DNA of 50,237 bases, the filler included, from Jimgerdemannia flammicorona (taxonomy: Eukaryota), in the NCBI GenBank assembly GCA_003990765.1. It is 2 parts of 2 records of this genome, joined end to end, with 100 filler letters (N's around TTAATTAATTAA, not from the genome) between each part and the next. Parts side by side here need not be neighbours in the genome. Positions count along the whole stretch, not along the records: positions 25,175 to 50,237 come from RBNJ01000887.1; 1 more part is not named here. One strand, written 5' to 3'. Positions 2,238 through 50,237 of this stretch are shown in pieces. Under the pieces are notes generated by a model. That model was given only the letters and a program-made list of their open reading frames with translations, did no database searches and was not told the DNA's origin. A program made the position numbers and the translations under genes. The first letter of the stretch is position 1. Every line of letters begins with the position of its first letter.

Positions 2238-2292
2238 AATAAAATATGGTATGTTATCAAGTCCATCCCTACTACTCTATATTTATCTCTTC

Positions 2293-4894: not shown

Positions 4895-6171
4895 ATGCCT
4901 GCTGCTTGCCAAACCTCAAGATCAAGGAACTACCAAGGCACCTCAGTCAAAGAAAGGATGTTCCAAGATATCAGAAGAGTCTTGAGGACTTACATAAGAA
5001 GGACTCCTAGTGTCAACCTGGGCACTGGTGACCCTTATCACTATATCCTCTACTGCCATGAAATGGAAACAAGGATCACTATTGCTACTGAATACCTCCA
5101 AATGTGGCAGGAGTATGAAATAGGAAACCTTCTCTGCCAGGAGTTCCCACAGACCAGCCCTCAAGAGTAACAAGATACCACTCCCATGGATATATACAAA
5201 ACAAGAATAGCTAAGAAGTTCCATCAGATCTTCAGACATGCATCATGGTTGATCCCCTACTTAGAGTATGTTAGAGTCTCAGAATTCAGAGACCTATCAG
5301 CCCACCATATCAATGCACTAGAAGCCAGAGTGGCTACAGAAACCCAGTCCACTATCACCCTCAATCATGATGAAGTAGAAGTCTTCTGGCTAGTGCTTCC
5401 AACAAATTGAATTGAATTGAATTGGACCCAAATTCGATTCAATTCGAAAACTTCAAATTGAATTGAGGCCCAATTCAATTTGAATCAATTTGAATTGAGG
5501 TCCAATTCGATTTGAGGTCCAATTTGAACTCTATTTTTAGAAATTAAATAGCTCGACGAATACATATCCAAATTCAATGTTCTTTAGCTTGTTAGATTCT
5601 TCTTATATAGGGATATCTATCAAGCTAATGATCAGTGAATTTGGACGTGTATTCGTCGAGTTATTACATTTCTAAAAATAGGTTTTGAATTGGACCCTCA
5701 ATTCAATTTGAATTCAATTCGATTTGAACTCAATTCTAATTGAAAAATCCCCAATTCGATTCGATTTGAATGACCCTCAATTCAATTTGATTCAAATTGA
5801 TTAGATTCGTTTGGGAGCACTACTTCTGGCATCCCATCCTCCAGGACAACCCAGACCAATTCCTGCAAGAATTGATCTCAGTATTCCAAGGCCCAAGCAT
5901 CCAGGTTAGACCTCCCCAAGACCCCACATTTGTCCCCTATTTCGTTGAAGAGAACCTCATAGACTGGAGAGCTCCAAACCTTCTTGTTCCTGCCGCTGCT
6001 GAATGTGATGACATCATTGGCAATAATGTCATCCTATGCAACATATACGAAATGTACAACCTGTACGATGATGATGGGAAGAATGAAACATTCATGGACC
6101 TCATCTCCTTCAAAGACATCCTGACCTCTGATGAGGATGAAACCTCTATGGTCTTGAACATTCTGCCCTAA
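4895..6171 (+). pseudogene. LTR (U3)-encoded accessory ORF, about 270-280 aa, here interrupted by a MITE
   Basis: MPAA..RMFQDIRR..GDPYHYILYC..WQEYEIGNLL..TAKKFHQIFRH..VSEFRDL..FWHPILQD..MVLNILP*; the same frame is seen in all six family A LTRs. Confidence 0.75.
5391..5822. mobile_element. Non-autonomous hAT-type MITE, 432 bp, foldback
   Basis: TIRs TAGTGCTTCCAACAAAT / ATTCGTTTGGGAGCACTA; 8-bp TSD CTTCTGGC at 5383-5390 and 5823-5830; empty site in the sister LTR at about 13063-13070. Confidence 0.9.
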
Positions 6172-10807: not shown

Positions 10808-12034
10808 GGAGTTATAATCAGCTACCTTGAGCAGCAGAAGATGCCCAACCACCTCAAACCCTGGACAATCACCATCATCAACTGGACTTAGAATTAGTTT
10901 GAACTAGACAACACTATACTCAGAAAAGGAGGAAAGCTAGTAATACTCAAATACAAGATGTATCAAGTAATGAAGGAAGTACATGAGCAAGGACACCTAG
11001 GAGGAATCAATACATATAACAAGGCAAAAACAACCATTTAGTGGCCCAAAATGTGAGCAGACCTGTGCCCATTTGTGAAAGGGTGTGATAAGTATCAAAA
11101 ACAGAAACAAGATCAGCAAGACCAGACACCTGGGTCATCAAAAATTAAGTCTATCCCCTTTTACCATATCACAATGGATATCATTGGGCCACTACCAGTA
11201 ACACTATCAGAAAACTGCAATATTATAGTTATTGTAGACCTCTTTACCAAATGGATAGAAGCAGGAGTATTACAAGAAGCCAATGCCCTCTCTATAGCTG
11301 ACTTCCTGCACCAAGAAAGTATCTGCTGCTACAAGATACTGAAGCAAATCACAACAGACTATGGTACAGAATTTGTCAATAGATTCTATGAGATAATGTA
11401 TCAGAAATATAAGATTTGGCACAAGACCACTGTGTACCACCTTGAAGGAAATGGACAGACAGAAAGAACCAACAAGACCCTCAAGAACATTCTGGTGAAA
11501 ATCTCAGAGACATATGAGAATTGGGATAACTACTTCCCAACTACTCTCTCTGTTCTATGAGATATATAGTCACAGAGCACACACTTTACCCCAAGAGAAC
11601 TGCTCTTCAGAGAAGAAGATTCTAATGGAACCTCAGCCACAAAACTAGACCTAACTTGGAGATAGATCAATGCAGAAATCTGGAGACAACACCAAATCAG
11701 GAAGAAGGCTGAATATTACATCATCAAGTCACAAGTGCTGATAAGAAAGAATACAGAAAAGAATCACAAGATCCTAGAACCTATCCAAATTGGAGAAAAG
11801 GTCCTATTGTATTGAAATATAGTAGAAGCCTCATGGTAATGAAAATTGGAGCCCAAATGGGAAGGACCCTTCTACATACAAGATATCAAGAGAACTACCT
11901 TCTGGCTTAGAAAAATCTCAGGGACCATACTGCCTACCATGATACATAGGAACAGACTCAAGAAGTATCATGAACCTATATAAGAGAAGCAAAACATGAT
12001 GACCACCCATGAGATTCTAGTCCACAAATCATAA
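10800..12034 (+). pseudogene. A1 integrase (HHCC-DDE-GPF), separate reading frame
   Basis: HEQGHLGG..CDK, MDIIGPLP, ITTDYGTEF, NGQTERTNKTLK, KLEPKWEGPF; no chromodomain seen. Confidence 0.9.
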
Positions 12035-12337
12035 CAGTATGTCCCATGACCAGCAGGCTATCTGTCTGGACCATTCTCTAAGAGATATGGCACTAGCAAC
12101 TACTCATCTGTGAGACTTTCAAAGCCAGAGGAGTTTGAACTGTCAACTGATTGGTCAAGATCAGAATCAGACCCTTGCTCTATATGAATGGAATGATCCT
12201 GCCAAAATATATAGGGAAGATGCCAGCCCATAAATACCAATTTTCGACTCTTTATCAGAGGTTATGAGATCAGCAAATTTTTCAGGACTGGACCAATGAA
12301 TAAGAATGCTCAAGAAGATCCTTATTCAGGTGGAAGA

Positions 12338-13906
12338 TGTAATGGTAACCTCAGAATGATGACATCAGTATAGGAGACAGCCTTTCCTTGCAAGCCACTA
12401 GATTGAAGCTCAAGAAGATCATATAGTATACAAGATGAGCAATTATGACCAACTGTGAGTCATTGTGACCACAGTACAGATATCTTGAGGAATATAAAAG
12501 AAGGATCAAGGAACCACAGTAGCAGCAACTCAACAAGACCCACCAATCCCAAAATAGCTCAAAGACTTACAATAAATGAAATGTCTGCTGCTTGCCAAAC
12601 CTCAAGGTCAAGGAACCACCAAGGTACCTCAGTCAAAGAAAAGATGTTCCAAGACATCAGAAGAGCCATGAGGACCCACAAAAGAAGGACTCCTAGTGTC
12701 AACCTGGGCACTGGTGACCCTTATCACTATATTCTCTACTGCTGTGAAATGGAAACAAGAATCACTATTACTACTGAATACCTCCAAATGTGGCAAGAGT
12801 ATAAAATAGGAAACCTCCTCTACTGGGAGTTTCCACAGGCCAGCCCTCAAGAGTTACAAGATACCACTCCCATGGATATATATGAAATAAGAACAGCTAA
12901 GAAGATCCATCAGATCTTCAGACATGCATCATAGTCAATCTCCAACTTGGAGTATGTTAGAGTCTCAGACTCTCTGTCAGCCCACCGTATCAATACACTA
13001 GAAGCCAGGGTGGCTACAGAAGCCCAGTCTACTATCACCCTCAATGGTGATGAAGTAGAAGACTTCTGGCATCCCATCCTTCAGGACAACTCAGACAAAT
13101 TCCTGCAAGAATGATCTCAGTATTCCAAGGCCCAAGCATCCAGGTTAGACCTCCCTAAGACCCCACATTTGTCTCCTATTTCATAGAAGAGAACCTCATA
13201 GACTGGAGAGCTCCAGACCTCCTTATTCCTGTCACTACCAAATATGATGACATCATTGGCAATGATGTCATCCTGCACAATATATGCAAAATGCATAACC
13301 TGCTTGATGACAATAAGATGGACAAAACATTCACAGACCTCATCTCCTTTGAAGACATCCTGATCTCTAATGAGGATGAAGCCTCTATGGTCTTGAACAT
13401 TCTGCTCTAAGTTCCTTGGTTATATTGAATTATGCCAGCACTCTCTTTCTGTATAACAGCTATTTCTCTACTGGCATTCTGATGTGACTCAGAATTATTC
13501 CAGCATCATTTTCCTATATCTCCAAAATTATACCAGTATTCTGAATCTGTGCAACCATCAGTGCCAATACTGGAACTTAGCAGTTTTCTATGTCCTGGCA
13601 TTTTGTTTGGTTATTGGAATTTATATTTAGCTTCATATCTTAGCAACCATTAAATTATATTTTATATAAATATTCCTCTTATTTTCTCTGAAATAAAGTC
13701 AGTTCTTCTCAGTGCAATACATATAATTCCTTATAAGCAATCTAAAGAGATAACAAGACAGTTTAAAGATAAGAAGTTTGAGGACTATAAGACCTTGGGA
13801 AGGTACTCCAATAAGAACTTGCTTATAACAAACTTGAGTTAGTCTAAGACATATATCTTGAAGAGAATCTAACATAATTGAAGGACTCAGCAACAACTTT
13901 GTGACA
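12338..13906 (+). repeat. A1 3' LTR (1569 bp), preceded by a PPT; carries the U3 ORF at 12581-13410
   Basis: TGTAAT...GTGACA; purine tract AGGTGGAAGA immediately upstream. Confidence 0.95.
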
Positions 13907-20961: not shown

Positions 20962-20998
20962 TGAGAGTAATGTTTAGAAGTAAGGTCTTGCTCATCCT

Positions 20999-27523: not shown

Positions 27524-28336
27524 ATACCTGCTGCCCACTAAACCTCAAGGTCAAGGAACCACCAAGGTACCTTGGCTGAAGAAAGGATGTTCCAAGACAT
27601 CAGAAGAGCTATAAGGACCTGCTCAAGAAGGACTCCTAGTGTCAACCTGGGTACTGGTGACCCTTATCACTATATTCTCTACTGCTATGAAATGGAAACA
27701 AGGATCACTATTGCTACCGAATACCTCTAAATATGGCAGGAATATGAAATAGGAAACCTCCTCTGCTGGGAGTTCCCACAGACCAGTACTCAAAAGCTAC
27801 AAGATGCCACTCCCATGGATATACATGAGACAAGAACAGCTAAGAAGATCCATCAGATCTTCAGATATGCACCATAGTTGATCTCTAACTTGGAGTATGT
27901 TAGAGTCTCAGATTTCAGAGACCTATCATCCTACCATATCAATGCACTAGAAGTCAGGGTGGCTACAGAAGCCTAGTCTACTATCACCCTCAATAGTGAT
28001 GAAGTAGAAGACTTCTGGCACCCCATCCTCCAAGACAACTCAGACCAATTCCTGTAAGAATTGATCTCAGTATTCCAAGGCCCAAGCATCCAGATTAGAC
28101 CTCCCCAAGACCCCACATTTGTCCCCTATTTGGTGGAAGAGAACCTTATAGACTGGAGAGCTCCAGATCTCCTTGTTCCTGCTACTGCCAAATGTGATAA
28201 TGTTATTGGAAATAACATCATCCTGTATGACCTATATAATCTTGATGAAACATTTGTGAACCTTATCTCCTTTGAAGATATCCTGACCTCTGATGACAAG
28301 GATGAAGCCCCCATGGTCTTAAACATTCTGCTCTAA
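27524..28336 (+). pseudogene. U3 accessory ORF, 271 codons start to stop (start decayed ATG>ATA)
   Basis: 813 nt; stops fall where other copies have CAA/CAG/TGG. Confidence 0.75.
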
Positions 28337-28345
28337 GTCCCCTGT

Positions 28346-28510
28346 TACACTGGATAATGCCAGCACCAGTATTCTGAGGTAACACTGGATAATACCAGTA
28401 CCAGCATTCTGAGATAACACTAGATAATACCAGTATTGGTATTCTGAGGTGATGTAAAATTGTTCCAGCACTGGCATTTTGATATAATACTGAATTATAC
28501 CAGCATCCTG
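28346..28510. repeat. 35-bp tandem repeat array in U3 (about 4.5 units)
   Basis: Unit approximately AACACTGGATAATACCAGCACCAGCATTCTGAGGT; about 2.5 units in A3 LTRs. Confidence 0.8.
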
Positions 28511-29071: not shown

Positions 29072-30588
29072 TGTCATGTAGTGGTTGCTGAGTCCTTCAA
29101 ATATGCCAGATTCTCTTCAAGGTATATCTCTTAGACTAACTCAAGTTTGTTATAAGTAAGTTCTTATTGGAGTGCCTTCCCAAGGTCTTATAGTCCTCAA
29201 ACTTCTTATCTTTTAAACTGTCTTATTATCTCTTAAATTGCTCACAAGGAATTGTGTATAAGTAAACTTGACTGACTTTATTTCAAAGGAAATAAGAGAG
29301 GTATTTATACAAAATATAATTCAATGGTTGCTAAGATATAAAGCTAAATATAAATTTCAATAACTAAAATAAAATGCCAGAACAGGAAAAACTGCTAAGT
29401 TTCAGTATCAGCACTGATAGTTGTACAGGTTCAGGATGCTGGTATAATTTTGTATCACATCAGAATACTGGTACTGGTATAATTTGGTATCATATCAGAA
29501 TACTGGTGCTGGCATAATTTAGTGTAATCAAAGGACTTTAGAGCAGAATGTTCAAGACCATAGGGGCTTCAACCTCATCAGAGGTCAGGATGTCTTTGAA
29601 GGAGATAACGTCCATGAATTTGTCATCATTACATATATTACATGAGATGATATCATCACTGATGATATCATTATATTCAGCAGTAGTGGGAACAAGGAGG
29701 TCTGGGGCTGAGGTTCTCTTCCACAAAATAGGGGACAAATGTGGGGTCTTAGGGAGATCTAACCTGAATGCTTGGGCCTTGGAATACTGAGATTAATTCT
29801 TACAGGAATTGGTCTGAGTTGTCCTGGAGGATGGGATGCCAGAAGTCTTCTACTTCATCACTATTGAGGGTGATAGTGGACTGGGCTTCTGTAGCCACTC
29901 TGGCTTCTAGTGTATTGATATGGTGGGCTGACAGATCTCTGAAGTCTGAGACTCTAACATACTCTAAGTTGGAGATCAACTATAGTACATGTCTGAAGAT
30001 CTGATGGATCTTCTTAGCTATCCTTGTTTTGTGTATATCTATGAGAGTGGTATCTTGTAGTTCTTGAGTGCTTGCCTATGAGAACTCCTAGCAAAGGAGG
30101 TTTCTTATTTCATACTCCTGCCACATTTAGAGGTATTTAGTAATAATAGTGATTCTTATTTCTATTTCACAGTAGTAGAGGATATAATGATAAGGGTTAC
30201 TAGTATCTAGGTTGATACTAAGAATCCTTCTTGAGCAGGTCCTCATGACACTTCTGATGTCTTGGAATATTGTTTCTTTAACTGAGGTACCTTAGTGGTT
30301 TCTTGACCTTGAGGTTTGGTGAGCAGCAGGCATTTTGTTTGTGATAAGTCTTTGAGCTATTTTGAGATTAGTGAGTCTTGTTGGTTATTGCTACTGTGGT
30401 TCTTTGATCCTTCTTTTATATTTCTCAAGATATCCATACTGTGGTTACAATGACTCACAGTTAGTTATCATTACTTATCTTATAGTTCAGGTAGTCATGC
30501 CATATGATCTTCTTGTATTCCGATCTGGTGGCTTGTAAGGAAAGGCTGTCTCCTGTGCTGATGTCATCATTCTGGGGTCACTATTACA
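29072..30588 (-). repeat. A3 3' LTR (U3 ORF at 30333-29538)
   Basis: Reverse complement of the family A LTR; PPT at 30589-30598. Confidence 0.93.
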
Positions 30589-30901
30589 TCTTCCTTCTGA
30601 ATAAGAATCTTCTTGAGCATCCTTATTCATTGGTCTAGTCCTGAAAAATTTACTGATCCTATAACCTCTGGCAAGGGGTCAAGAAGTGGTATTTATGAGC
30701 TGACATCTTCTCTTTATATTTTGGCATGATAGTGAAGGGTCACTCCCTTCATATAGAGCAAGGGCCTGATTCTGATCTTGACCAATCAGTTGACAGTTCA
30801 AACTCCTCTGGCTTCAAAAGTCTTATGAATAAGTAGTTGCTGGTGCTGTATCCTTTAGAGAATGGTCCAGACAGATAGCCTTCTGGTTACAGGACATGCT
30901 G

Positions 30902-32146
30902 TTATAATTTACAGACTAGAACCTTATGGGTAGTCATTATATTTTGCTTCTCTTATATAGGTTCATGATACTTCTTGAGTCTGTTCCTATGTACCATGGT
31001 AGGCAGTATGGTCCCTGAGATTTTTCTAAGCTAGAAGATAGTTCTCTTGATATCTTGTATATAGAAGGGTCCTTCCTATTTGGGCTTCAGTTTTCATGAC
31101 TATGAGGCTTCTTCCATATTTCAATATAGTAAGATCTTTTCTCTGATTTGGATGGGTTCTAGGGTCTTGTGATTCTTTTCTACATTCTTTCTTATCAGTG
31201 CTTGTAACTTGATGATGTAATCTTCAGCCTTCTTCCTAATTTAGTATAGTCGCTGGATTTCTGCATTGACCTATCTTCAAGTTAGATCTAGATTTATGAC
31301 TGAGGTTCTATCAGAATATTCTTCTCTGAAGAGTAGTTCTTTTGGGATAAAGTGTGTGCTCTGTGACCATATGTCTCATAGAACAGAGAGGACAGTTGGG
31401 AGGTAGTTATCCCAATTCTTATATATCTCTGAGATCTTTGCCAGGATGTTCTTGAGGGTCTTATTAGTTCTCTCTGTCTGTCTATTTTCTTAAGAGTGGT
31501 ATATAGTAGTCTTGATGTGCTGAATCTTGTATTTCTGATACATTATTTCATAGAATCTATTGATAAATTCTGTACTATGGTCTGTTGTGATTTGCTTTGG
31601 TGTCTTATAGTAGCAGATGATTTCTTGGTATAGGAAGTCAGCTATAGAGAGGGTATTAGCTTCTTGTAATGCTCCTGCTTCTATCTATTTGATAAAGAGG
31701 TCTACAATAACTATAATATAGCAGTTTTCTGATAGTATTACTGGTAGTGACCCAATGATATCTATTATGATGTGATGGAAGGGGATAGGTGCAATTCTTG
31801 ATGACCTGAGTACTTGGTCTTGCTGATCTTATTTCTATTTTTGGCACTTGTCACATCCTTTGACAAATTGGTGCAGATCTTCTTCTATTTTGGGCCACTA
31901 TATAGTTCTTGCCTTATTATATATGTTGGTTCCTTCTAGGTATCCTTGCTTATATACTTCCTTCATTACTTGATACTTCTTATATTCAGGTATTACTAGC
32001 TTTCCTCCTTTTCTGAGTATAGTATTGTCTAGTTCAAACTGTTTCCAAGTCTGGTTAATAATAGTGATTATCTAGAGTTCAAGATAGTTGAGCATCTTCT
32101 ACTGCTTAAGATAGCTGATTAATCTATAGTATAACTTCTTATTCAT
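30902..32146 (-). pseudogene. A3 integrase, separate frame, 415 codons with stops
   Basis: Starts at CATGAATAA (minus strand); CDKCQ and KLKPK*EGPF motifs. Confidence 0.88.
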
Positions 32147-35100: not shown

Positions 35101-36151
35101 TCTCCTCAGGTTGGGTCTTACTTTGGATAGTAACAGCTGAGGTCTTCTTCAGTCTTCCAACTGACTTGCTATTACTCTTCTTGTCATAGGGCTTTGACCA
35201 GATTCTGATATCTTTAGTAGTAGGGTAGAATTTGAGCTCCTTATAGTATTCTTTATTGTTAGTGTTACCAATCTTCTTGATGACTACTGCATTGGTTTGT
35301 TCTTTGGTTCTGCTAGCATTACTTGGTTGGGCTTTGTATCTTGTTTTGGTTATGCAATTCTTTACATAGTGGCCTTCTTCTCTATATCTGAAGTATGTGA
35401 TATTGTATTCTTCTGTAGCAGCTGCAAATCTCTGCACTGGTCTCCTGTTGGCACTTCAGACTTCTCTAACAACATCACTAAGATATATAGTTATCTCAGT
35501 AAACTGCTTGGTGAGTTCCTCCACTGGGTCAGCTTTGGTTGTCTTGGGGGTAGGTGGGGTTGGTTGTCTGTTTACAATGATAGTGGGTATGATACTAGTT
35601 GGCTTTAATGGCTCCATCTTGATACCAGTTATTTTCTCCATTGAGTATTCAGCAGAGTGTCTGGCATTCCAATATCTCTGTACAAAGACCACTTTCTGAT
35701 CAAGGGTCAGTATAGCTGGAGTAAACTGGATTGCTAGGGTAATTTCAGAGTAAACTTCTTTGAGAAAGGTTGAATCTGCTATTTGTTCCTTGAGGCAGTC
35801 ATCATAGCTAGCCAAGACAATCTGATAGCAGATTCAGATATAGAATGAGTTGAGATCTTCACTAAGTCTCTGGCAGATAGTATTGAGTTGATCCTTAAGA
35901 GCTTGCTTGATCTCTTCAGTATAGTATGTTGTTCTGAGGAAGGCCTTCATGTTGGCAAGTTTGGCTGCACTATTATCAGCAATAGTAGCTACATTGAACT
36001 TGTCTCTGGCAGGTCCTCTGAGGCTAACTGATAGAAGGGCCAATTGTACATCTACACCAAGGACTTGTATGGTAGTGAATTGTTCAAAGTCTTCAATGAA
36101 GATCAGGATTGACTCTTCAGTAGTATATCTATAGAATATGTAGGGATATAT
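32139..36151 (-). pseudogene. A3 gag-PR-dUTPase-RT-RNaseH pseudogene
   Basis: SVSLRGPARDKF, IVDTGAG, GGVIDPDYTG, RGEQGFGSTG, RLCIDYRKLN, LQTDAS, NADALSR. Confidence 0.92.
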
Positions 36152-36277
36152 TTCTATCTTGTCTTAAATTCTTGTAGGGGTGACTCTTGTAGTTAGGGTA
36201 GTTATTGTGGTGGTTGTTCATTTTTCAGCTTGAAAGTGAGGGATTCATCTTGAATCACCAGCCAATGGATACCAAGT

Positions 36278-37757
36278 TATCACATAGTAGTCACTGAGTT
36301 CTTCAAATATACCAGATTTTCTTCAAGGTATATCTCTTAGACTAACTCAAGTTTGTTATAAGTAAGTTCTTATTGGAGTGTCTTTTTAAGATCTTATAGT
36401 CCTCAAACTTCTTATCTTTTAAACTGTCTTGTTATCTCTTAGATTACTTGTAAGAAATTATATATAAGTGAACTTGACTGACTTTATTTTGAAGAAAATA
36501 AGAGGGGTATTTATACAAAATATAATTCAATGATTGCTAAGATATAAAGCTAAATATAAATTCTAATAACTAAAATAAAATTCCAGGACAGGAAAAACTG
36601 CTAAGTTCTAGTGTTGGTACTGATAGTTGTACAGATTCAGGATACTGGTATAATTTTATATTACATCAGAATACTAGTGCTAGTATAATTTAATGTTACA
36701 TCAGAATGCTGGTGCTGGCATAATTCAGTGTAACCAAAGGACTTTAGAGCAGAATGTTTAAGACCAGCCTTATCAGAGGTCAGAATGTCTTCAAAGGAGA
36801 TGAGGTCTGTGAATTTGTTGTTATCATATATATTGCATGGGATGATATCATCACTGATGACATCATCATGTTCAGCAGTAGCAGGAACAAGGAGGTCTGG
36901 GGCTCTCCAGTCTATGAGGTTCTCTTCCACAAAATAGGGGACAAATGTGGGCTCTTGGGGAGATCTAACCTGGATACTTAGGTCTTGAAATACCTGAAGG
37001 ATGAGATGCCAGAAGTCTTCTACTTCATCACTGTTGAGGGTGATAGTAGACTGGGCTTCTTAGCCACTCTGGCTTCTAGTGCATTGATATGGTAGGCTGA
37101 CAGATCTCTGAAGTCTGAGACTCTAATATACTCCAAGTTGGGGATCAACCATGGTACATGCCTGAAGATCTGATAGATCTTCTTAGCTGTTCTTGTTTTG
37201 TGTATATTCATGGGAGTGGTATCTTATAGTTCTTGAGTGTTGGTCTGTGGGAACTCTCAGCAGAGGAGGTTTCCTATTTCATACTCTTGCTATATTTAGA
37301 GATATTCAGTAGCAATGGTGATCCTTGTTTCTATTTCATAGCAGTAGAGGATATAATGATAAGGGTCACCAGTACCTAGGTTGATACTAGGAGACCTTCT
37401 TGAGTGGGTCCTCATGGCTCTTCTGATGTCTTGAAACATTCTTTCTTCAACTGAGGTGCCTTGATAGTTCCTTAACCTTGAGGTTTGGTGAGCAGCAGAC
37501 ATTTTATTTGTAGTAAGTCTTTGAGCTATTTTGGGATTAGTGGGTCTTGTTGGTTGCTGCTACTGCAGTTTCTTGATCCTTCTTTTATATTCTTCAAGAT
37601 ACCAATACTGTGGTCACAATGACTCATAGTTAGTCATCATTGCTCATCTTGTAGTCCAGATAGTCATGCTATATGATCTTTTTGTATTCTGATCTGGTGG
37701 CTTGTAAGAAAAGACTATCTCCTGTACTAATATCATCATTCTAGGGTCACTATTATA
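36278..37757 (-). repeat. A3 5' LTR (U3 ORF at 37502-36744)
   Basis: Matches 29072-30588 apart from small deletions. Confidence 0.93.
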
Positions 37758-38468
37758 CCATATATTTCTATATAATATCTTTATTAGATAATAAGATTCC
37801 TTGAGAACTTTCTTCTCTGAATAGTATTTCTCAAGAGATAAAATGCAGATATCCTAGAGAGCAGATGATACTATTAGCAGATAGTAATCTCAGTTTTTAT
37901 AGTTATTGCAGATCTTAGTAATAATATTCTTAAGAGTCTTATTGATTCTTTCTACTTATCCATTTCTCTGAGAGTGATAGACATATACTGAATCTTGTAT
38001 TTCTTATAGAGAACTACTTTATGAATTCTGTTTCTCTATCTATAGTTACTTGCATTGGAGTTTTAAATTAGCAAATAATTTCTTTATAGAAAAATTAACA
38101 ATTGACTGTATATTGACTTTCTTGAGTAATCCTACTTCTATCTATTTTATAAAAAGATATACAATAATAATGATATATCAGTTATCAGTAAAGTCAAGAG
38201 TGAGAGCTAATTATATCTATTGTAATGTGAGTAAATAGTACTAATTCTATATATACTAATCTTGGAGTCTAATTTTATTAGTCTTATATATTTCTGTTTC
38301 TGGTATTTGTTATAGATCTTGATAAATTATCTGATATCTTTCTCTATTTCTGACTACTACATTATTCTTCTTGCCTTATCATATATATATATTTCTTCTA
38401 GATAGTTAAGTTTATATATTGATTTCATTGCTTGTTCATTCTTATATTTAGATATAACTAGTATATAG

Positions 38469-38939
38469 TGTGATGGCTGATCCGAATTAGTAATATGAAA
38501 CAGGGGAATTAGACATTTGATCGTGGTACCTAAATCTGATTCCCAATATAGCTTAGCCTCATAAATAGCAGCCACATTCCACAAAGTGCAGAAACTTTAA
38601 TGTTTGCAAAGATTTAGGAGATGTTAGAATCTTTGTGATCAGCGAAATCTTAGCAGATGTTAAAAGATTCAGCACTTACGAATTGAGCCATTACTTAGCT
38701 ACCTTATAGTTAGCAAAACTTGTATAAATAACCCAGTATCTTAGAGTGAATAAACCTCAGATCAAAATAGTTCAAAGCAAAGAGATAGCAAAGGAACTAG
38801 TAAGCCTGCAGGCAGATACACTTTGAACTCACCCACTCTCCCCTACAACTCAAAGGACTCTGCGAGAGTTAGAGAAGATCAAGTTTTCAAGATACAGAAA
38901 TCTGACATACTTTCAAGAGTAAGCATCCACTATGTTACA
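38469..38939 (+). repeat. B 5' LTR (471 bp)
   Basis: Same length as, and colinear with, 44731-45201; TATAAA at 38723, AATAAA at 38749. Confidence 0.96.
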
Positions 38940-39059
38940 ACTTGGTGCCCATTGGCTGGTGATTCAAGATGAATCCCTCACTTTCAAGCTAAATAACAAA
39001 CAACTATCCCTACCCAAACAACCATACAAACTGAGCCCCAATACCCAGACAAGATAGAT

Positions 39060-42000
39060 ATGAGACCACCAGTATTCCATAGATATACCTCAGATGAATC
39101 AATCATCACCTTCATTGATAATTTTGAGCAGTATGTCACTGTAAGGATCCTGACAGCAGCACAGCAAGTAGCCCTCATGCCCTTCAGCCTATGAGGTCCT
39201 GCCAGAGCAGCATTCACAGCCACAACCTATACAGGAAATGATACTGATACTATACTGACAGTACAGAAGACCTGGCTCTGAAATACATATTATACAGATG
39301 AGATCAAGCAAGCTCTGAAGGATCAGCTCAATACAACATACCAAGGAATAAGTAAGGATCCAAACACATTCTATACCAGAATTCAATATCAGATAATTCT
39401 CGTAGATTATACTGCTGCTACATATCTAAGATCAAGTAGCTGAAGCAACCTTCATGAAAGGAGTCTACCCAGAAATAGCTATGGCCATCTGCTTATCACC
39501 AGTGATTCTGGATCTGCTACAGAAGGTCACCTATGCTCAGCAATACTGGATAGCCAGACACCCACAAGACTATACAATAGAGAGAGTTACAGGAGTCAGA
39601 ATCGAAGTATCTAAGTCAACCAGTGTGATCTCCACCACAATGATCAATCGAAACACACCTCAGTCCAAAGCTATAGAGCAGCAAAAGAACAGTGACCCTT
39701 TGGAGGAACTTACCAAGAGGTTCGCAGAAATGACTGCCCACTTGGGGGATGTAGTAAAGGAGATCAGAGGAAGAGACTGCTGCTCTGTCCAGAAGTTTGC
39801 TGCCACCTCAGACAAGAAGAAAGGCACCTGCAATACTTGTGGAGAAGAAGGCCACTACTCCTATGAATGCATGAGTGAAACTAAGTGCAAGGCTCAACCA
39901 AGCAATGCTATATAAAACAAGGAGCAGGCCAATACAATTACCTTTGAGAAAATTGGAGATTCTGATGAAGAAGAATGGGAGGCCTATCCTGCTCAGACTA
40001 CTAAGAAGGATGTTCACAAGGAACCCTACAAGAGACCACCAGGAAGACTCAAGAAGAACCCAGTAGAAAAGCAGATGGAAATGGTCACCAAAAGCCAAGC
40101 TGAAGAGATGGACCAAGATATGAAGCTTGAGCAAGTAGTTCAAGATACATATTATCCAAGGAACTACCCCAGCCAGCAAAGGAGAAAAAGAAAAGAAACT
40201 TTGCAAGATCAAGACATTCAAGTATGATATCTTCAAGGATCTTAGCCAACAAAAGATCAATGCAACCTTTGGTCAGCTCGCAGAAATCCCAACATTTAGA
40301 TAATAAATGAGGTTCAGACTCGCCGAAACAACTAAGGAGTAAGGATGGAAGATAACCAAGACCAATAATATTCAAGAGGACTCAGGAGAAGAAAGTGAAG
40401 ACAATCGCAAAACCTCTGCCTATGCAATATGCCAAATCGAAGATAGAATCTTTGAAGCCATCATTGATACTGGAGCAGGAGAATGCCTTCTCAGCAAGAA
40501 GACAGCAGACTGCCTAGGTTGAAAGGTTGAAGAAGCAACCAAGTTGGTGTTTGTTACAGCAGATGGCACAAGAGCCACCCCTCTGGGAAAGATCCAAGAT
40601 GTCCCCATCAAGATTAGAGGAGCAACCATCCCAGTAGATGTAATCATAACCAATGCCACAAACTATGACATCCTTATTGGCAATCAATAGCTTCACAAAG
40701 CCAGGGCAGTAATCGACCTCAATGCTCAGAAGATGCAAATCACCTATTGGGGACAGAAGATACAAATTTCCATCAATATCAACAAAGGAGTCTTGCCTGA
40801 TATGGAGGAAGAAGAGAGCGAGCAGGAGGAAGCTTATATGGTAACCATTCCAAAGAGGAAAGTAGGATGGATGAGTGAAGAAGAATGGTGCAAGAAGATC
40901 ACAGAAGGCTATGCACCACAAGGAGTCTGTCCTCACAGGATCAAGATATACTGTATGGAGCATGTCAATGATTGCTATCAATGCACCATCAGAATCAGAA
41001 AGATTCACTAGGAAAGAAGACAGAAGGCTCTTGAAAAACAGGTTAGAGAAGAAAAGAAGGAGGAAGATGACAAACCACCAGCCCTCCTGGAGAACAGTGA
41101 TGATGAAGAAATCAATGTCAAGATTCGAAGAACCCACCCTGATGCAGTTCTGCCAGAATACAAGTTAGAAAATGCAGCTGGAATAGACATTGTTACAGTA
41201 GAAGAAGTCATACTGGAACTCCAGACAACCACCCTACTTGTAACTGGACTGGAAATGACCATTCCAAAAGACCATGTTGGGATCCTCAAGACAAGAAGCA
41301 GCCTGGCCAGAAGCAAAATTATGATTGAAGGAGGAGTCATCGATTCTGACTATACTGGAGAAATCCTGCTCATTGCTAGAAATCACAATCCTATAATCCC
41401 ATTCCCAGTCAAGAAGAAGGACTGATTGGCATAGATGCTGATCTTCCCAATCCTACAACCAAGGATTATAGAAGTCAAGAATCTGGAGGAAATGAAAAGA
41501 GGAAAGAAAGGATTTGGATCCATAGGAAGAGGAGTATTCACCAGTACCAAGATCACCAAACTGAAGCATAAGAAGGAGAAAAATACAAACAAGCACAGCT
41601 ATACCATTGGAAATGAATTCCCACTCAAGGGGGAACTCAAGAAAATACTCCATGAATTTGAGGATGTCCTTGCCACAGACTTCAAGGATATCAAAGGAAA
41701 GACTCCACACTACTATTATGAGGTAGATACCGGAGACATCAAACCAATTTACCAGAAGGCAAGACCTGTCCCACCAGCTTACCGAGAATGGCTCAGAGAA
41801 GAAATCAAGCAGATGGAAGAAGCTGGTATTATCAAAGAAGCCAGCAGTCTCTGGTCTTCACCAGTTGTACTAGCCCTGAAAAAAGGAAGCAACCCTGGAG
41901 AATTTGCCCTAAGACTCTGTGTTGACTACAGAAAGCTCAATGTAGTTATCAAGAAGGATTGCCAACCACTGCCCCTCATCAGTGACATTCTTATAACACT

Positions 42001-43048
42001 GGGAGACGAAGCACAGTACTACAGCACCTTAGACTTATACTCAGGATTCCACCAAATCGGACTCACAGAGATGGAAAGTGAAAAGTCAGCCTTCATCACT
42101 CCAGACAGAACCTACATCTACCTATAAATACCATTCAGGATGTACAATATACCAGCAAGCTTTCAGCAAATGATGAACAAAATCTTCCACTATAATATAG
42201 GAAGATGGATGATGGTCTATATTGATGATGTAATCATCTACAGCAAGATACCTGAGGAACATCTGCAGCACATATGGCAGATAATGGAGAGACTAAGACA
42301 ACATGGCCTTTACATCAAACCCAAGAAGTACAAGTTTGCAGAAATCGAGATCTCCTACCTTAGCCATATTATCAATCAAGATGAAACATACATGGACCCC
42401 CTCAAGATACAAGTAGTAGCAGCATACCCAAGGCCCACCACTGTTACAGAAGCCCAAGCCTTCATGGGACTTGCCTCCTACTATCGCAGATTTATTAGAG
42501 GATTCTCCAACATTGCAAGTCCAATCTATGAACTCAATAAGAAGGATACCAAGTTCCAGTGGACTGGCAGACAACAAAAAGTATTTGATAAACTCAAGAT
42601 CAGACTAACTCAGACACCCATCCTCAGATGACCCAATTGGACTCAAGAATTCATTCTGCAGACAGATGCAAGTGCACAGGGACTAGGAGTAGTCCTAGCT
42701 TAGAAAGAAGACAAAAAAGAGTATATCATTGCATACCTTAGCCATGGAACCTGAGGAGCTGAAAAAGAATATGAATCCTACAAGTTGGAATGCCTTGCAG
42801 TTATTTGGGCTGTAGAAAAGTTCCACTACTATCTGGCTGGAAGACACTTCACCATTCAGACAGACCACTCAGCTCTTACCTGGCTACTGACAACCAGACA
42901 ACCCAAAGGAATCTATGCTAGATGGATAATGAAGCTACAAGCCTATGATGTAACCATTGTACACTGCCCTGGAAGAACAAATTCCAATATAGATGCTCTC
43001 TCACAGATACCCCAAAACACTGTCAACCAACAAATCAATCATGAATAA
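39060..43048 (+). pseudogene. B gag-PR-dUTPase-RT-RNaseH pseudogene
   Basis: CNTCGEEGHYSYEC; IIDTGAG; AAGIDI, TRSS, GGVIDSDYTGE, RGKKGFGSIG; RLCVDYRKLN, YIDDVIIY; LQTDAS, NIDALSQ; ends INHE*. Confidence 0.93.
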
Positions 43049-44244
43049 AGAACTTTACTATGGAATTATCACATATCTGAGATAGCGAAAGATATCCCAA
43101 CATCTGGAAGAATGGATGCAAATGATTATCAATAGAACATGGAAACAATTTGAAACTGACAGATAAATACTGAAGAAAGGAAAACTACTAGTCATACTAG
43201 AACATAAGAAGGAGCAAAGCAATGAAATCAGTATATGAACTTGACCATCTAGGAGGAATGAATACATATGATAAGGCAAGAAGAACAATATGGTGGCCAG
43301 GAATGGAGGAAGATATCAGACAATTTGTCAAAACTTGTGACAAATACTAGAAACAGAAGCAAGACCAATGAAACCAAGCCCTGGGATCAGCATATATAGA
43401 ACCAGTACCATTTGCCCACATAGTAATGGATGTAATCAGCCCTCTACCCTTGACCCTGACTGGTAACTGATATATCATTGTCATCATAGACCTTTTTATG
43501 AAGTGAATAGAAGCAGGACCCCTCAAGGAAGCCAATGCACAGTAAATTGCCAATTTCTTCTACAAAGAAATCATCTGCCAGTTTAAGACCCCAATACAAG
43601 TAACTATAGATAGAGGAACAGAATTCATAAACCAGTTCTTTGAGGTTCTCTACAAGAAGTACAAGATCCAGCACATTCAGACCACAGCCTATCACCCCCA
43701 AGGAAACAGATAAGCAGAAAGGACCAATAAGACCCTCAAGAATGTTATTGCCAAGATCTGTGATAACTATGAAAACTGGGATCACTATCTGCCAATAACA
43801 TTATCTGCTCTCTGGGATATCAGATCACAAAGTACCCACTTTACTCCTTGGGAAATGCTGTTCAGAGAAGAAAGTTCTTGAGAAACCCTATCATCTAATA
43901 GAGATACTATATGGAGACATATGGATGGAGAAATACAGAGGCTACACTAAATCAGAAAGAAGGCTGAGGATTACATAATGAAAGCACAGGCACTACAACA
44001 GAAGAATGCAGAAAAAACCCACAAGCTCTTAGAGATTATCAAGATAGGAGACAAAGTCCTAGTGTATCAGAACATGGTAGAAGCCTCATGGTCATGAAAA
44101 CTAGAGCCTAAGTGGAAAGGACCTTACCTTATACAAGATATAAAAGGAACCACCTTTTGGCTATGAAAACTCTCAGGTACAATCATCCCCACTACCATCT
44201 ACCAAAACTAACTTAAGAAGTATTATGACCAGTCAACGAAGTAA
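43041..44244 (+). pseudogene. B integrase, separate frame
   Basis: MNKELYYGIITYL..HLGG..CDK..MDVISPLP..TIDRGTEF..AERTNKTLK..KLEPKWKGPY..LKKYYDQSTK*. Confidence 0.9.
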
Positions 44245-44752
44245 TACTGCTGCTCTCAGAATTACTAGTGCAGCCCAGTGAACCATCAAAAGACAGTGGT
44301 GTCCCACTGAGCCACCAACAATGGAAGAATCCTTTGATAGTATCTAGAGTATAGTGCAAACACACTTATTATGAATCTCACATTTCAAGGCCTACCAGAA
44401 CTGAACTGAGTTCCAGGAATACTTCAAGTTAGGACAGCTACTGAATTCAAGACCGAAGATGGGAAAAGAAGACTGGATCAGAGAATATCAGCTCTCCTAC
44501 ATTCAGATCACAATTGCAAAAAGAGTGCACAAGTTATTCAAAGACAATGAGTCAGCCTTAGCCCATTTCTGAGGAGTAACCACCTCAGGAGACTTTGGAT
44601 ATATCAAGAGATAATATTGGAAGGATGTAATGATACAAATTGCATAGTATAAGGAAATACAAATCATAGAAGCCTGGGAATTCGAGTGAATAGAATGCTC
44701 CCAAGATGAATCACCTATTCAGAAGGAAGATGTGATGGCTGATCCAAATTAG
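44225..44752 (+). pseudogene. Putative ORF3 (accessory gene, about 175 aa) between integrase and the 3' LTR
   Basis: One frame reads FQEYFKLGQLL..ITIAKRVHKLFKD..GVTTSGDF, resembling the family A LTR ORF; 8 internal stops; start codon uncertain. Confidence 0.6.
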
Positions 44753-45201
44753 TAATATGAAACAGGGGAATTAGACATTTGATCATGGTACCTGAATCCA
44801 ATTCCTAATATAGCTTAGTCTCATAAATAGCAGCCACATTTTGCAAAGTGTAGAAACTTTAACATTTGCAAAGATTTAGGAGATGTTAGAATCTTCGCGA
44901 TTAGCAAAATCTTAGCAGATGTTAAAAGATTCAGCACTTATGAATTGAGCCATTACTTAGCTACCTTATAGTTAGCAAAACTTATATAAATAACCCAGTA
45001 TCTTAGAGTGAATAAACCTCAGATCGAAATAGTTCAAAGTAAAGAGATAGCAAAGAAACTAGTAAGCCTGTGGGCAGATACACTTCAAACTCACCCACCC
45101 TCCCCTGCAACTCAAAGGACTCTGCAAGAGTCAGAGAAGATCAAGTTTTTAAGATACAGAAATCCGACATACTTTCAAGAGTAAGCATCCACTATGTTAC
45201 A
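44731..45201 (+). repeat. B 3' LTR (471 bp)
   Basis: Direct repeat of 38469-38939. Confidence 0.96.
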
Positions 45202-48200
45202 ATAGCTTTTCTTTCTTTAATATTTCTCTATTAGTTTTGAATTATTTCTATATTCTGTTAATAATTATTTATATTCATTCTTTTAGATATTGAGACATCT
45301 TTTACTATTTCAGATAAGTAATAATTCTATAATAGAGCTCCTTATTTATAGTTGGATTACTAGTTGAGAATTCTTCAGAGTATTTATGAGAAGATATCTA
45401 TATTGATATTGGTTCTTCTAGGATAGTATACATATGATAGTTATATTATAGACTTATAACTTTATAATCCATCTGATATATATATATTTCTTTGGGTTAT
45501 CTGATAGTTAGTAGCTAAGTATAGATTATATAGTCTATCTATATAGTGAAGTATCTTCTAGTAAGATAGTAGTGAAACTTTTCTATAGTTCAGATAACTG
45601 TAATATATTCTAACTTATATAATTTATATTCTTTTTTAGCTCCTCAGGTTTCTCTACTGAGATATATAATGATATACTCTACTTTATCTTTTTTCTAAAC
45701 TAAGACTACTTCTAGTCTTTATGTACTTATATATATCTATAAGATGAATTCCTGAGTCCAATTAGATCTTCTCAGAATAAATACCTGGGTCAGTCTAATC
45801 TTGAGTTTATTGAATATTTTCTATTATCTATTAGTCTATTAAAACTTGATATCTTTTCTATTGAGTTTATAAATTAGATCTATAATATTAAAAAATCCTC
45901 TAATAAATCTATATTAATATGAGATAAGTCTCATAAAGGCTTGAGCTTTTATAATAGTAGTAGGTCTTAAATATACTACTACTGCTTGAATCTTGAAAGA
46001 GTTTGTATATATTCCATCTTAATTGATAATGTAGCTAAGGTAAAAAATCTCAATTTCTACAAACTTGTACTTCTTGAGCTTGATATATAGACTGTGATTT
46101 CTCAATTTCTCCATTATCTGTTAAATATACTATAGATACTCTTCTGATATCTTATTATAGATAATTATATTATCTATATAAATTATTATCCATTTTCTCA
46201 TATTTACTAGAAGATTTTATTTATCATTTGCTGGAAACTTACTAAAGTATTACATATTCTAAATAGCATTAGCAGGTAGATATCAGTTCTATCTGGAGTA
46301 ATGAAGGCTGATTTTTTACTTGCTGCTTCTGTGAGACTGATTTAGTAGAATTCTGAATATAAATTCAAGGTGCTGTAATATTATACTTTATCTCTCAGAG
46401 TTATGAGAATATCACTGATAAGAGATAGTAGTTAGTAATTCTTCTTAGTAATCAGATTAAGCTTCTTATAATCAGTACAGAGTTTTGAGAAAAATTCTCC
46501 TAGTTTACTTCCTTTCTTTAAAGCTAGTATAACTGGTAAAGCCCAGGGGTTACTGGTTTTTTTTTTGATAATATTAGCTTTTTCTATCTGTTTGATTTCT
46601 TCTCTAAGCCATTTGTAGTAAGCTGATGAGATGAGTCTTGTCTTCTGATAGATTGGTTTGATATCTTCTATATTTATATTATAGTAGTAGTATGGTATCT
46701 TTTCTTTAATATTCTTAAAATTGGTAGTAAGAATATCTTTAAATTTATAGAGTATCTTCTTGAGTTTCTTCTTGAGTGGGAATTTATTTTCAATAGTATA
46801 ACTATACTTATTTATAGTTTTCTCCTTCTTGTAGTTTAGTTTGATAATCTTAGTATTAATGAGTACTTCTCTTTCAGTAGATCTAAATTCTTCCCTTCCT
46901 CTTTCTGTTTCCTCCAACTTCTTGACTTCTATGATCTTTAGCTAAAGGACCAGAAAGATTAATATCTGTATCAGTTAGTCCTTCTTCTTGATTAAGAATA
47001 GAATTGTAGGATTGTAGTTTCTAGCAATAAGTAGTATTTCTCTAATATAGTCTAAATTGATGACTTCTCCTTTAATAGTAATATTGCTTTTAGCTAGACT
47101 ACTTCTTGTCTTGAGAATTCTAATATAGTCTTTTGGAATAGTTATCTCTAGACCAGTTGTAAGTAGGATAGTTGTCTAAAGTTTGAGTGCAGTTTTCTCT
47201 ACTATAGCAATATATATTCTAGCTAAATTTGCTAGCTTATATTATATCAAAATAAATTTTCTAAATTTTGATCTTGATTTTTTCATCATAATCATTATCT
47301 TCTAGAAGAGCAAGTAGTTTATTATTATCTTCTTTCTTCTTTGTCTTTTCTTATTCTTTGAGGGCCTTTTCTCTTTTTTGATAATAGATTTTCTTTACTC
47401 TAATAGTATACTTATAATAGTTATTGACATGCTTTATACAATAAATTCTGATCTTATGTAGGCAGACTTCTTGGAATATATATCTTTTAATAATCTTATA
47501 CCAGTCTTCTTTACTCATCTATTCAATTTTTTTTTTTTTTTTTTTTTTTTTTCTAAGTGGTCACCATATAAGCTTCTTCTTACTCACTTTCTCCTTCCTC
47601 TATCTTGAAGAGTACTCTTTTGTTGATATTAATAGAAATTTATATCTTCTATCTATAGTAAATAATTTATATCTTCTAAGTATTCAGGTTAATTATTACC
47701 CTAGCTTTATGAAGCTACTGATTGCTAATAAGAATATCATAGTTGGTAGTATTGATTATGATCACATCTACTAGAATAGTTACTCCTCTAAAATTGATAG
47801 GAATATCTCAGATCTTTCTCAGAGATATGGCTCTTATACTATCTACTATAATAAATACTAACTTATTGTTTCTTCAACCTCCCAACCTAGGCAATCTGCT
47901 GTCTTCTTATTGAGAAGATATTCTCTTACTTTAGTATCAATGATGACTTCAAAGACTTTATCCTTAATCTGATAGATTATATAGACAGAGGTCTTGCAAT
48001 TGTTTTTACTCTCTTCTCTAGAGTCTTCTTGAACATTATTAGTCTCAGTTATCTTCCAATATTAGTCCTTAGTTGTCTTAGTAAGTTCTAATCTTATTTA
48101 CTATCTAAATATGAGAATTTCTACTAACTGACAAAAGGTTATATTGACTTTTTATTAGCTGAGATCATTGAAGATATCATACTTGAAAGTTTTGATCTTA

Positions 48201-49584
48201 TAAAGTTTTTTCTCCTTTTCTTCTTCACTAGCTAGAGCTAGAGTAGTTTCTTGAATAATATCTTGAACTACTTACTCAAGCTCTATATCTTGGTCTATTT
48301 CTTTAGCTTGACTTTCTGTAATAGTCTTTATCTGTTTTTTTTACTAAATTCTTCTTAGATCTTTCTGATAGTCTCTTATAGGATTCTCTGTAGATATTCT
48401 TCTTAGCAGTCTGAGTAGAATAGGTCTCTCATTCTTCTTCATTAGACTCTTCAATTTCTTTGAAGATGATAATATTGATCTGTTCTTTATTTTGAGTAAT
48501 ATTGCTTAGCTGAGCCTTATACTTAGTCTTACTTATATATTTGTATAAGTAGTGGTCTTTTTCTCTACAGATATAGTAGATATATCTCTTCTTATTTAAG
48601 GTAATAGCAAACTTCTGAACTAGGTGACAGTCTCTTCCTCTGATTTCCTTTATTAAGTCTTCTAGATAGATAGTTATTTCAGCAAACTTCTTAGTGAGTT
48701 TTTTTATAGAGTTACTATTTCTTTATTATTTTATATTCTTTGACTATAGTGTGTTCTAATTAATTATTATAGTGAAGATTATACTAGTTATCTTGAGTGC
48801 TTCAATTCTAACTTCAGTGACTCTTTCTATTATATAAGTTTATAGATATCTGACTATTCAATATTGCTGAACATAAGTAACTTTCTATTATAGATCCAGA
48901 ACTACTAGTAATAAGTAGATAACTATGACTATCTCTAGATATATTTCTTTCATAAAGGTTACTTCAGCTACTTGGTCTCAAATAGTATTAGCATAATCTG
49001 TAAGGATTATATAATATCAGATTCTAGTATAGAATGTATTTGGATCCTCACTCATTTCTTAGTATATTATATTGAGCTAATCTTTTAGAGCTTACTTAAT
49101 CTTATCTATATAATAGATAGTTCAGAGCCAGGTCTTTTTTACTGCTAGCATAGTATTATAATCTACTTCTATATAAGTTATAACTATGAATACTACTCTT
49201 GCTGGGCCTTAGAGACTAAAGAATATAAGGGCTACTTGTTGTCTTACTGTTAGAGTTCTTATAGTAATATATTACTCAAAATTATCAATAAAGATAATAT
49301 ATTTAATTCATCTGAAGTATATCTATAGAATATTAGTAGTCTTATATCTATCTTATCTAGATGTCTTAATTTAATTTATATAATTGTTTAGATAATAGTA
49401 ATTATTCATTATTTAGCTTAAAAGTGAGGAATTTATCTCAAATTATCAGCTAATAGATATTAAGTTATAATATAGTAAATATCTAATCTCAGAAATATAG
49501 TAGATTTCTGTATCATAAAACTTGATCTTGTTCTGACTCTTGCAGAGTCCTCAGAGTAGAGGTGTAAGTTCAAAGTATATCTAT

Positions 49585-50237
49585 TGTAACGGTGACCCCG
49601 GAATGATGACATCAGCACAGGAGACAGCCTTTCTTTACAAGCCACCAGATCAGAGTATAAGAAGATCATACGGCATGCGAGATGAGCAATGATGACTAAC
49701 TGTGAGTCATTGTGACCACAGCACAAGCATCCTGAAGAATATAAAAGAAGGATCAAGGAACCGCAGTAGCAGCAGCCAACAAGAACCCCAATCCCAAAAT
49801 AGCTCAAAGACTTACCACAAACAAAATGCCTGCCGCCCACCAAACCTCAAGGTCAAGGAATCATCAAGGTATCTCGGTCGAGGAAAGGATGTTTCAAGAC
49901 ATCAGAAGAGCCATGAGGACCTGCTCAAGAAGGACTCCTAGCGTCAACCTGGGTACTGCAGACCCTTATCACTTTATCCTCTACTGCTGTGAAATGGAAA
50001 CAAGGATCACCATTGCCACCGAATGCCTCCAAATGTGGCAGGAATACAAAATAGGAAACCTCCTCTGCCGGGAGTTCCCACAGGCCAGCCCATAAGAGCT
50101 ACAAGATGCCACCCCCATAGACCTACGTGAGGCAAGGACAGCAAAGAAGATCCATCAGATCTTCAGGCATGCACCATGGTCGATCCCCAACTTGGAGTAT
50201 GTTAGAGTCTCAGACTTCAGAGACCTGTCATCCCACC
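49585..50237 (+). mobile_element. Family A copy A4, start of an LTR (least decayed copy), inserted into the LTR of B'; U3 ORF begins at 49826
   Basis: TGTAACGGTGACCCCGGAATGATGAC; preceded by CTAT; retains CpGs lost in other copies. Confidence 0.92.

Follow-up and report, generated by a model that had tools for sequence, protein, structure and literature searches.

We analyzed a 50,237-nt stretch of the Jimgerdemannia flammicorona genome (NCBI GenBank assembly GCA_003990765.1; hereafter the window), which joins two parts across 100 filler letters and in which positions 25,175 to 50,237 come from RBNJ01000887.1. Self-BLAST indicated that the window is a nest of decayed long terminal repeat (LTR) retrotransposons belonging to two families, A and B. 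The element of interest here is B1, a family B copy of Ty3/gypsy type that encodes gag, protease (PR), dUTPase, reverse transcriptase (RT), RNaseH and integrase (IN), and that carries a hidden third open reading frame (ORF3) between the end of IN and the polypurine tract (PPT) preceding the 3' LTR. The frame had been noticed in a first-pass annotation, which likened it to a gene inside the LTRs of family A. Taken together, our analyses show that ORF3 is a dead gene and a distant homologue of the family A LTR gene, and they make it likely that the gene was relocated across a PPT/LTR edge that is itself conserved.

ORF3, a dead accessory gene behind the integrase of B1

The ATG of ORF3 lies 17 nt upstream of the B1 pol stop codon, and the two genes overlap by 20 nt in different frames, the IN frame ending six codons past the ORF3 start. 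ORF3 of B1 is one codon longer than its 153-codon relatives, with no frameshift. The first-pass annotation had read the frame from 44225 to 44752, and we reproduced its peptide with eight internal stops and a final one. The overlap with the end of IN stood, whereas the proposed run through the PPT into the LTR did not, since the gene stops 31 nt before the PPT and the final 63 nt of that interval lie outside it. Within the gene proper there are seven in-frame stops, at 44279, 44345, 44372, 44402, 44570, 44612 and 44645. Counting stops in the B spacer gave no coding signal, with eight in the ORF3 frame as compared to nine in each of the other two frames, and the earlier caution that the stop count was near random was thus right.

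We then searched the X-masked B peptide against a collection of 5.8 billion proteins. Intact relatives of the B frame made up 9 of the 18 candidates (98-153 residues, 64-77% identity); all were open, and at each B1 stop position every intact relative covering that position had a sense codon. In the longest, P0007, the methionine aligned to the ATG at 44225 and the end (...EAWEFE) to the TGA at 44687-44689. The suggestion that this ATG could be a decayed ACG proved wrong, because it is the conserved start: the methionine was kept in all six full-length relatives and in L001, a metagenome contig with a near-intact related element. L001 has a 1258-residue gag-PR-dUTPase-RT-RNaseH ORF and a broken IN, and its ORF3 is open (5795-6256, 153 codons, ACCATGG start); a gap of 31 nt separates the ORF3 stop from the PPT, behind which the LTR begins. 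Over 154 codons, B1 and L001 ORF3 differed at 36, 15 and 70 first, second and third codon positions, respectively. The ratio of nonsynonymous to synonymous change (dN/dS) between them was 0.07 in the ORF3 frame and 0.74 and 2.09 in the other frames; dS was saturated in this comparison, which makes the ratio rough while the frame-specific signal is clear. These results show that the sequence at 44225-44689 derives from a real accessory gene of 153 codons, dead in B1 but open and under purifying selection in relatives, and the hidden third gene proposed for family B is therefore real. The nine intact relatives, the open frame of L001 and the dN/dS of 0.07 amount to the conservation among copies and families expected of an additional ORF (aORF). 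The gene could be recognized because intact relatives were found. As a separate observation, L001 opens (positions 1-540) with the last ORF3 codons, the PPT and a full LTR, and only then come the primer binding site (PBS) and gag, which reflects either elements in tandem with one LTR in common or a repeat that was assembled in wrap-around form. The two LTR stretches of L001 differ in short U3 tandem repeats.

The LTR gene of family A and its relation to ORF3

The LTRs of family A are 1481-1569 bp long, and the frame with the QEY...AKKIH motif that had been described in them was present in all six A LTR copies of the window, with the QEY codons at 5108, 12794, 27737 and 50039 on the plus strand and at 37289 and 30120 on the minus strand. 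Only the copy in the A2 3' LTR held all 271 residues of the intact relative P0004 in one tblastn segment. We found three close intact relatives (271, 247 and 215 residues, 75-81% identity), and a search with the A profile, which covered 1.84 billion representatives at E up to 0.001, gave six hits, one of which (P0005) was already known. Four of them were further A relatives, including proteins of 214, 342 and 200 residues: the distant full-length forms P0016, P0018 and P0019, with 47%, 41% and 28% identity to P0004 (A-type relatives thus reach 28-47% identity), and P0017, a closer C-terminal fragment with 74% identity. The sixth hit, P0020, was judged to be a low-complexity repeat protein and was set aside. 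Going by the TATA-like and AATAAA motifs behind its stop, the A gene is placed wholly inside the LTR, in U3 and upstream of the promoter, and in A1 and A3 each of the two LTRs holds a copy. This is the position of a U3-encoded accessory gene such as sag of mouse mammary tumor virus (MMTV). The dN/dS among window copies would tell little, since LTRs of one element differ by ~12% and those of different elements by 12-16%, so that nearly all differences arose after insertion.

Two further observations concern these LTRs. U3 holds short tandem repeats, with units of ~40 nt and ~18 nt, just behind the gene in the A2 LTR (28360-28450) and just behind the LTR start in L001 (6396-6467); their copy number differs between copies, and they may be enhancer-like. 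The ~430-bp insertion at 5391-5822, in the gene of the A1 5' LTR, shows an internal palindrome between inverted ends, and its target is directly repeated over 8 bp (CTTCTGGC). It looks like a small non-autonomous hAT-type DNA transposon, an assignment based on the 8-bp target duplication, which we take to be typical of that group.

Comparisons within the window gave borderline scores for the relation between ORF3 and the A gene. In BLASTP, the B frame scored 23.1 bits (E 0.002) with one A copy and 19.2 bits (E 0.024) with another. When the B spacer was compared with four A LTR copies by Smith-Waterman, three frames against three, the score was reached by 3 of 200 shuffles for one copy and by 52, 71 and 114 of 200 for the other three, so that the pairwise alignment with shuffling advised by the first-pass annotation held for one copy and failed for three. 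One reading of these scores, given that three of the four LTR copies do not exceed shuffles, is that A and B carry two unrelated orphan genes that resemble each other by chance, the more so as the two proteins share a helical nature and a similar composition, features that can raise profile scores artificially. Profile comparisons, however, make such a coincidence very improbable. The B alignment matched a narrow A alignment by hhalign with a probability of 68% (E 4.8e-5) and a broad A alignment with a probability of 88.8% (E 2.5e-6, 112 columns). The score of 46.5 was reached by none of 200 composition-keeping column shuffles of the B alignment (mean 13.2, maximum 20.1), and the reversed B alignment scored 15.0. 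Six-frame hidden Markov model (HMM) scans gave hits that were reciprocal and specific: with the B profile, all non-self hits up to an independent E-value (i-E) of 1 were the A LTR copies, six of six and in one register (i-E 0.021-0.88), with one further hit at i-E 6, while with the A profile the best non-self hit was B ORF3 (i-E 0.034), the next following at 1.5 and 1.8. Besides itself, P0007 found an A LTR copy when searched against the whole window with tblastn (E 4.2e-5, 151 aligned positions). The A-type protein P0019 bridges both sets, matching P0007 in BLASTP with 32 bits (E 2e-6), and in a MAFFT alignment of both sets the order of five motifs agreed, namely E-x-F-x-x-I, H-F/Y, [FW][QH]EY, AK[RK][IV]H[KQ]hF (h, hydrophobic) and DF. 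The proposed homology is thus well supported at the sequence level, and B ORF3 and the A LTR gene are best regarded as distant homologues, one accessory gene in two locations.

The identity between ORF3 and the A gene is ~24% over ~110 residues. The pol identities to L001, 50-64% for family A and 69% for family B, are far higher, indicating that the accessory gene diverged much faster than pol. Could the two families have acquired homologous genes separately, each by capture of one member of a host or foreign family or through inter-family recombination? The low gene identity set against 50-64% in pol would suit such a history, as would the differing positions and a family A spacer that bears no trace of the gene. 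On the other hand, accessory genes commonly diverge much faster than pol, five of the six profile hits among the 1.84 billion representatives were short orphan proteins of the same kind, and a search with the merged profile gave 17 proteins among 4613 candidates, none of which had a Pfam domain or an informative name. No host family is thus in sight in these searches, and we consider separate acquisition unlikely.

The PPT/LTR junction and a proposed route of relocation

A1, A2, A3, B1 and the two ends of L001 agree in sequence over the block CYTATTCAG-purine tract-TGTRAYRG. It forms a conserved stretch of ~35 nt made up of the sequence upstream of the PPT, the PPT and the first LTR bases, and the PBS is identical between A and B as well. 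Because the PPT/LTR edge is conserved between the families, the gene lies on opposite sides of one junction. The part of the A LTR behind the gene stop measures 470-514 bp as compared to 472 bp for the whole B LTR. The TATA-like motif stands 256-278 nt behind the ORF stop in A and at 253 in the B LTR, AATAAA at 285-305 and 281, respectively, and these motifs, TAAAGAGATARCAA and the last 42 nt keep the same order at similar offsets in A and B. The A gene and the sequence ahead of it therefore account for the ~1.1-kb difference in LTR size, and the earlier explanation of that difference by the gene fits. In family A, pol and the PPT are separated by a non-coding spacer of ~345 nt, another ~243 nt of LTR precede the gene, and the gene, at 271 codons, is 118 codons longer than its B counterpart.

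The first-pass annotation had explained the two layouts by a shift of the PPT/U3 boundary. Taken literally, this means that, from a B-like ancestor, plus-strand priming in family A would have moved upstream of ORF3, so that ORF3, the old PPT and the old U3 became LTR. The LTR sizes and the order and offsets of the motifs fit this account. A, B and L001, however, do not differ in the PPT, in the block ahead of it or in the first ~8 LTR bases, which implies that any new priming site must have arisen by copying the old module and not by a shift of the boundary; moreover, neither a relic PPT nor a relic LTR start was found behind the A gene, and the 118 extra codons, the 345-nt spacer and the 243-nt LTR lead have no counterpart in B. 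A simple slide is not supported, and the literal model appears doubtful, although of the alternatives to relocation it is the one we take most seriously.

Since the junction block is conserved and family A has an extra spacer and extra LTR sequence, a rearrangement of the gene or of the module is needed. For relocation, we propose that the common ancestor would have carried one 3' accessory gene, and that a rearrangement then brought it into the LTR in one lineage or out of it in the other; either direction would do. The unit that moved may have been the gene or the PPT/LTR-edge module. Most likely, either the module or the gene was included in a duplication while the element was being reverse-transcribed, and one of the copies was later lost; such a history would explain why the A LTR is larger by ~1.1 kb. 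By analogy with retroviral env, MMTV sag and CERV of Cer1, the gene, located towards the 3' end of the genomic transcript in both layouts, would need a subgenomic message, probably spliced.

Several points weigh against this account of homology and relocation. The hhalign probability stayed below 95% with two shallow profiles (effective sequence numbers, Neff, of 1.4 and 2.1), and single hits of the B profile on A copies were each weak (i-E 0.02-0.9). The comparison of predicted structures that the first-pass annotation had called for was of limited use: the AlphaFold models were poor (predicted local distance difference test, pLDDT, 53.0 and 49.2) and their folds not comparable, and they had in common only that they are helical and that the helices of the shared part follow in the same order. 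Shuffle tests and HMM within the window and L001 gave no DNA trace of the rearrangement, and the lack of a relic PPT and LTR start behind the A gene counts here too. The U3 interiors of A and B were within the shuffle range (98 and 138 of 200), the A spacer against ORF3 was matched by 157 of 200 shuffles with no HMM hit, and similarity upstream of the PPT was not significant beyond ~35 nt (10 of 500 at best, otherwise 131-223 of 500). Finally, the function proposed below is drawn from composition and position only. Other comparisons were likewise negative: A spacer against A gene (53 of 200 shuffles), A LTR start against the 3' part of the A gene (46 and 11 of 200) and L001 LTR start against A LTR (186 of 200). 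Two candidate traces were dismissed, namely a collinear TGAATA(A)GRATG at the same pre-PPT offset in A and B, which was not significant (10 of 500 at best), and protein-level spacer-to-spacer alignments (43-48 points), which looked like noise on inspection.

Element class, surrounding features and significance

The order of Pfam domains in L001 is zf-CCHC, aspartyl protease, dUTPase, RVT_1, RT_RNaseH and Integrase_H2C2. The pol regions of A1 and B1 are collinear with that of L001, which matches B1 at its 69% identity across 40151-43045 in tblastn, and A and B are sister families with collinear pol. The structure is that of the Ty3/gypsy group, with direct TG...CA LTRs, a PBS-like block behind the 5' LTR (ACTTGGTGCCCATTGGCTGGTGATT in B1, shared with family A), a PPT ahead of the 3' LTR and the domain order PR-RT-RNaseH-IN (from Pfam on L001, with A1 and B1 collinear). 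The LTRs of B1 (38469-38940 and 44731-45202) are 93% identical, running from TGTGATGG to GTTACA, and the last 42 nt of the 3' LTR can be aligned to the end of the family A LTR. The chromodomain of the chromovirus branch was not found at the IN C-terminus, where Pfam gave only a weak MLVIN_C match below the cut-off in the C-terminal IN piece of L001. The dUTPase between protease and RT (PF00692, E 2.9e-28) spans residues 625-752 of the L001 polyprotein (L001:2715-3098), and its collinear counterparts in the window lie at ~8366-9190 in A1 and within 40151-43045 in B1.

The features of the window are collected in Table 1. B2 is an older, AT-enriched family B copy on the minus strand, with 73% identity to B1, and it holds four later insertions, B1, A3, A2 and A4. 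It has no counterpart of B1 44142-45202, and the window therefore offers only one copy of the B ORF3 region. The GC content of B2 is 27-28% versus ~42% in B1. The only sequencing run found was a soil-metagenome DNA run, in which 0.10 of the words matched and 1710 short family contigs were obtained at 80% likeness, with differences that were mainly transitions (602 of the 682 listed differences of the family copies). The AT enrichment of B2 and the excess of transitions point to C-to-T decay, for instance by repeat-induced point mutation (RIP) or deamination of methylated cytosines. The same run also showed three 'joints' of 100 nt, each in a single contig of low depth, which we did not read as splicing. 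By eye, A1 and B1 are flanked by apparent 4-bp target duplications, CTAA (4647-4650/13907-13910) and ATAG (38465-38468/45203-45206), respectively; 5 bp is more usual in the Ty3/gypsy group. Two runs of 44 N (25075-25118 and 25131-25174) mark an assembly gap that removes the 5' part of A2. The segments 1-3947 and 18737-22685 are GC-rich (~49%), strongly C-skewed and 67% identical to each other, and their minus strand holds remnants of a non-LTR-type reverse transcriptase (...GVPQRDPLSPILY...FADD...); from this sequence we take them for decayed LINE-like elements.

Table 1. Features of the families A and B in the window
Feature	Position	Strand	Remarks
A1 (family A)	LTRs ~4651-6668 and 12338-13906	+	
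A-type gene, A1 5' LTR copy	4895..6168	+	split by ~430-bp insertion 5391-5822
A1 spacer	11984..12328	+	from pol stop (11981-11983) to PPT; all frames closed; neither ORF3 profile matches
A1 3' LTR	12338..13906	+	1569 bp; PPT at 12329-12337
A-type gene, A1 3' LTR copy	12581..13410	+	decayed; stops, one frame change near 13111-13165; tblastn P0004/P0005, HMM
A2 (family A)	from behind assembly gap at 25179 to 28848	+	
A-type gene, A2 3' LTR copy	27524..28336	+	LTR positions 242-1054 of 1565
A3 (family A)	29071-37757	-	
A-type gene, A3 3' LTR copy	29538..30333	-	tblastn, HMM
A-type gene, A3 5' LTR copy	36775..37502	-	tblastn, HMM
B1 (family B)	38469..45202	+	decayed Ty3/gypsy-type element, gag-PR-dUTPase-RT-RNaseH-IN-ORF3; self-BLAST LTR pair, TG...CA ends and flanks
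B1 5' LTR	38469..38940	+	472 bp; then primer binding site common to family A
B-type ORF3	44225..44689	+	154 codons and TGA at 44687-44689
Stop codon of B1 pol (IN) frame	44242..44244	+	
B1 polypurine tract	44721..44730	+	AGAAGGAAGA; conserved CCTATTCAG block before it
B1 3' LTR	44731..45202	+	472 bp; TATA-like +253, AATAAA +281
B2 remnants (family B)	45203-49582, 37758-38463, 28850-29070	-	
A4 (family A LTR fragment)	49578-50237		
A-type gene, A4 LTR copy	49826..50237	+	cut by window end; tblastn, HMM

As to function, database searches were negative. Pfam gave no family for the three A and B peptides of the window at E up to 1 or for four intact ORF3 proteins at E up to 0.01, and the same Pfam searches found no relation to sag, nef or bel2. 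A search of PDB sequences gave no match with the A profile and one chance-level match with the B profile (asparaginase, E 0.06), and ESM Atlas provided no usable lead (best score 0.83 for P0004; 0.95 for P0007, with only unnamed hypothetical-protein clusters). Some clusters came up with both queries, an overlap to which we give no weight as evidence. The A-type N-terminus is basic (+4 to +5 per 30 residues in P0004), whereas the C-terminal tail, dotted with hydrophobic residues, is strongly acidic (-7 to -13 per 30 residues) in each of the four proteins whose C-terminus is covered; the B-type protein consists of just the core and is near neutral. From composition and position we would guess, tentatively, that the gene encodes a small helical protein by which the element regulates its own RNA or its transcription.

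Extra genes of LTR retrotransposons are known, and few have been tied to function. To our knowledge, a gene wholly inside an LTR is a textbook matter only for retroviruses such as MMTV. Accessory genes in or overlapping the U3 of the 3' LTR include MMTV sag, nef of HIV and SIV, and bel2/bet of foamy viruses. The A gene is like them in lying in U3 and thus being copied into both LTRs; unlike these genes of vertebrate retroviruses, it has a homologue that the sister family keeps outside the LTR. In the literature within reach, subscription journals being mostly beyond it, we found neither the ORF3 family nor any LTR retrotransposon with a gene inside its LTR described.

Extra ORFs and a dUTPase between PR and RT are already on record for fungal Gypsy elements: the accessible parts of one study draw such elements with an extra ORF' and describe PosPlaTy3-5 of Postia placenta with a dUTPase in that place (PMC2864245). 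L001 shares with PosPlaTy3-5, which we liken by description only, the order PR-dUTPase-RT-RNaseH, with A and B collinear, and no chromodomain was found behind its IN. B ORF3 resembles the aORFs so described in lying on the sense strand between pol and the PPT/3' LTR and in being conserved within its family; it differs in having no relation to a named family in Pfam and a sister-family homologue inside the LTR. The accessible text of a review of plant aORFs has no occurrence of 'within', 'in' or 'inside the LTR'. The closest working model for the guessed function may, by analogy, be CERV of Cer1, a Ty3/gypsy element of C. elegans; the accessible part of its description presents CERV as the product of a spliced mRNA needed for nuclear export of the genomic RNA, far larger at 517 residues and derived in part from upstream exons (PMC10309623). 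For the layout of family A, retroviral U3 genes such as MMTV sag would serve as the model.

In one 50-kb window, two sister families appear to have the same orphan gene, placed in one family before and in the other behind a PPT/LTR edge that both conserve. They offer a concrete case for asking how LTRs grow by gene uptake and with what consequences, since a gene in the LTR is doubled with each insertion, stays on solo LTRs and has its place upstream of the promoter. A further lesson is that a near-random stop count in a decayed copy is compatible with a real gene; here the search for intact relatives decided the matter. It is a rather speculative thought that the A LTRs represent a sag-like U3 capture outside the retroviruses, family B having the gene still in its classical place before the PPT, and that the protein, with its basic N-terminus, helical core and acidic tail, is a new-fold factor, akin to Rev, CERV or Tas, for export or transcription of the element RNA. 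If such a capture took place, every solo LTR would be a potentially expressible copy of the gene, and families A and B would form a natural before-and-after pair of the event.

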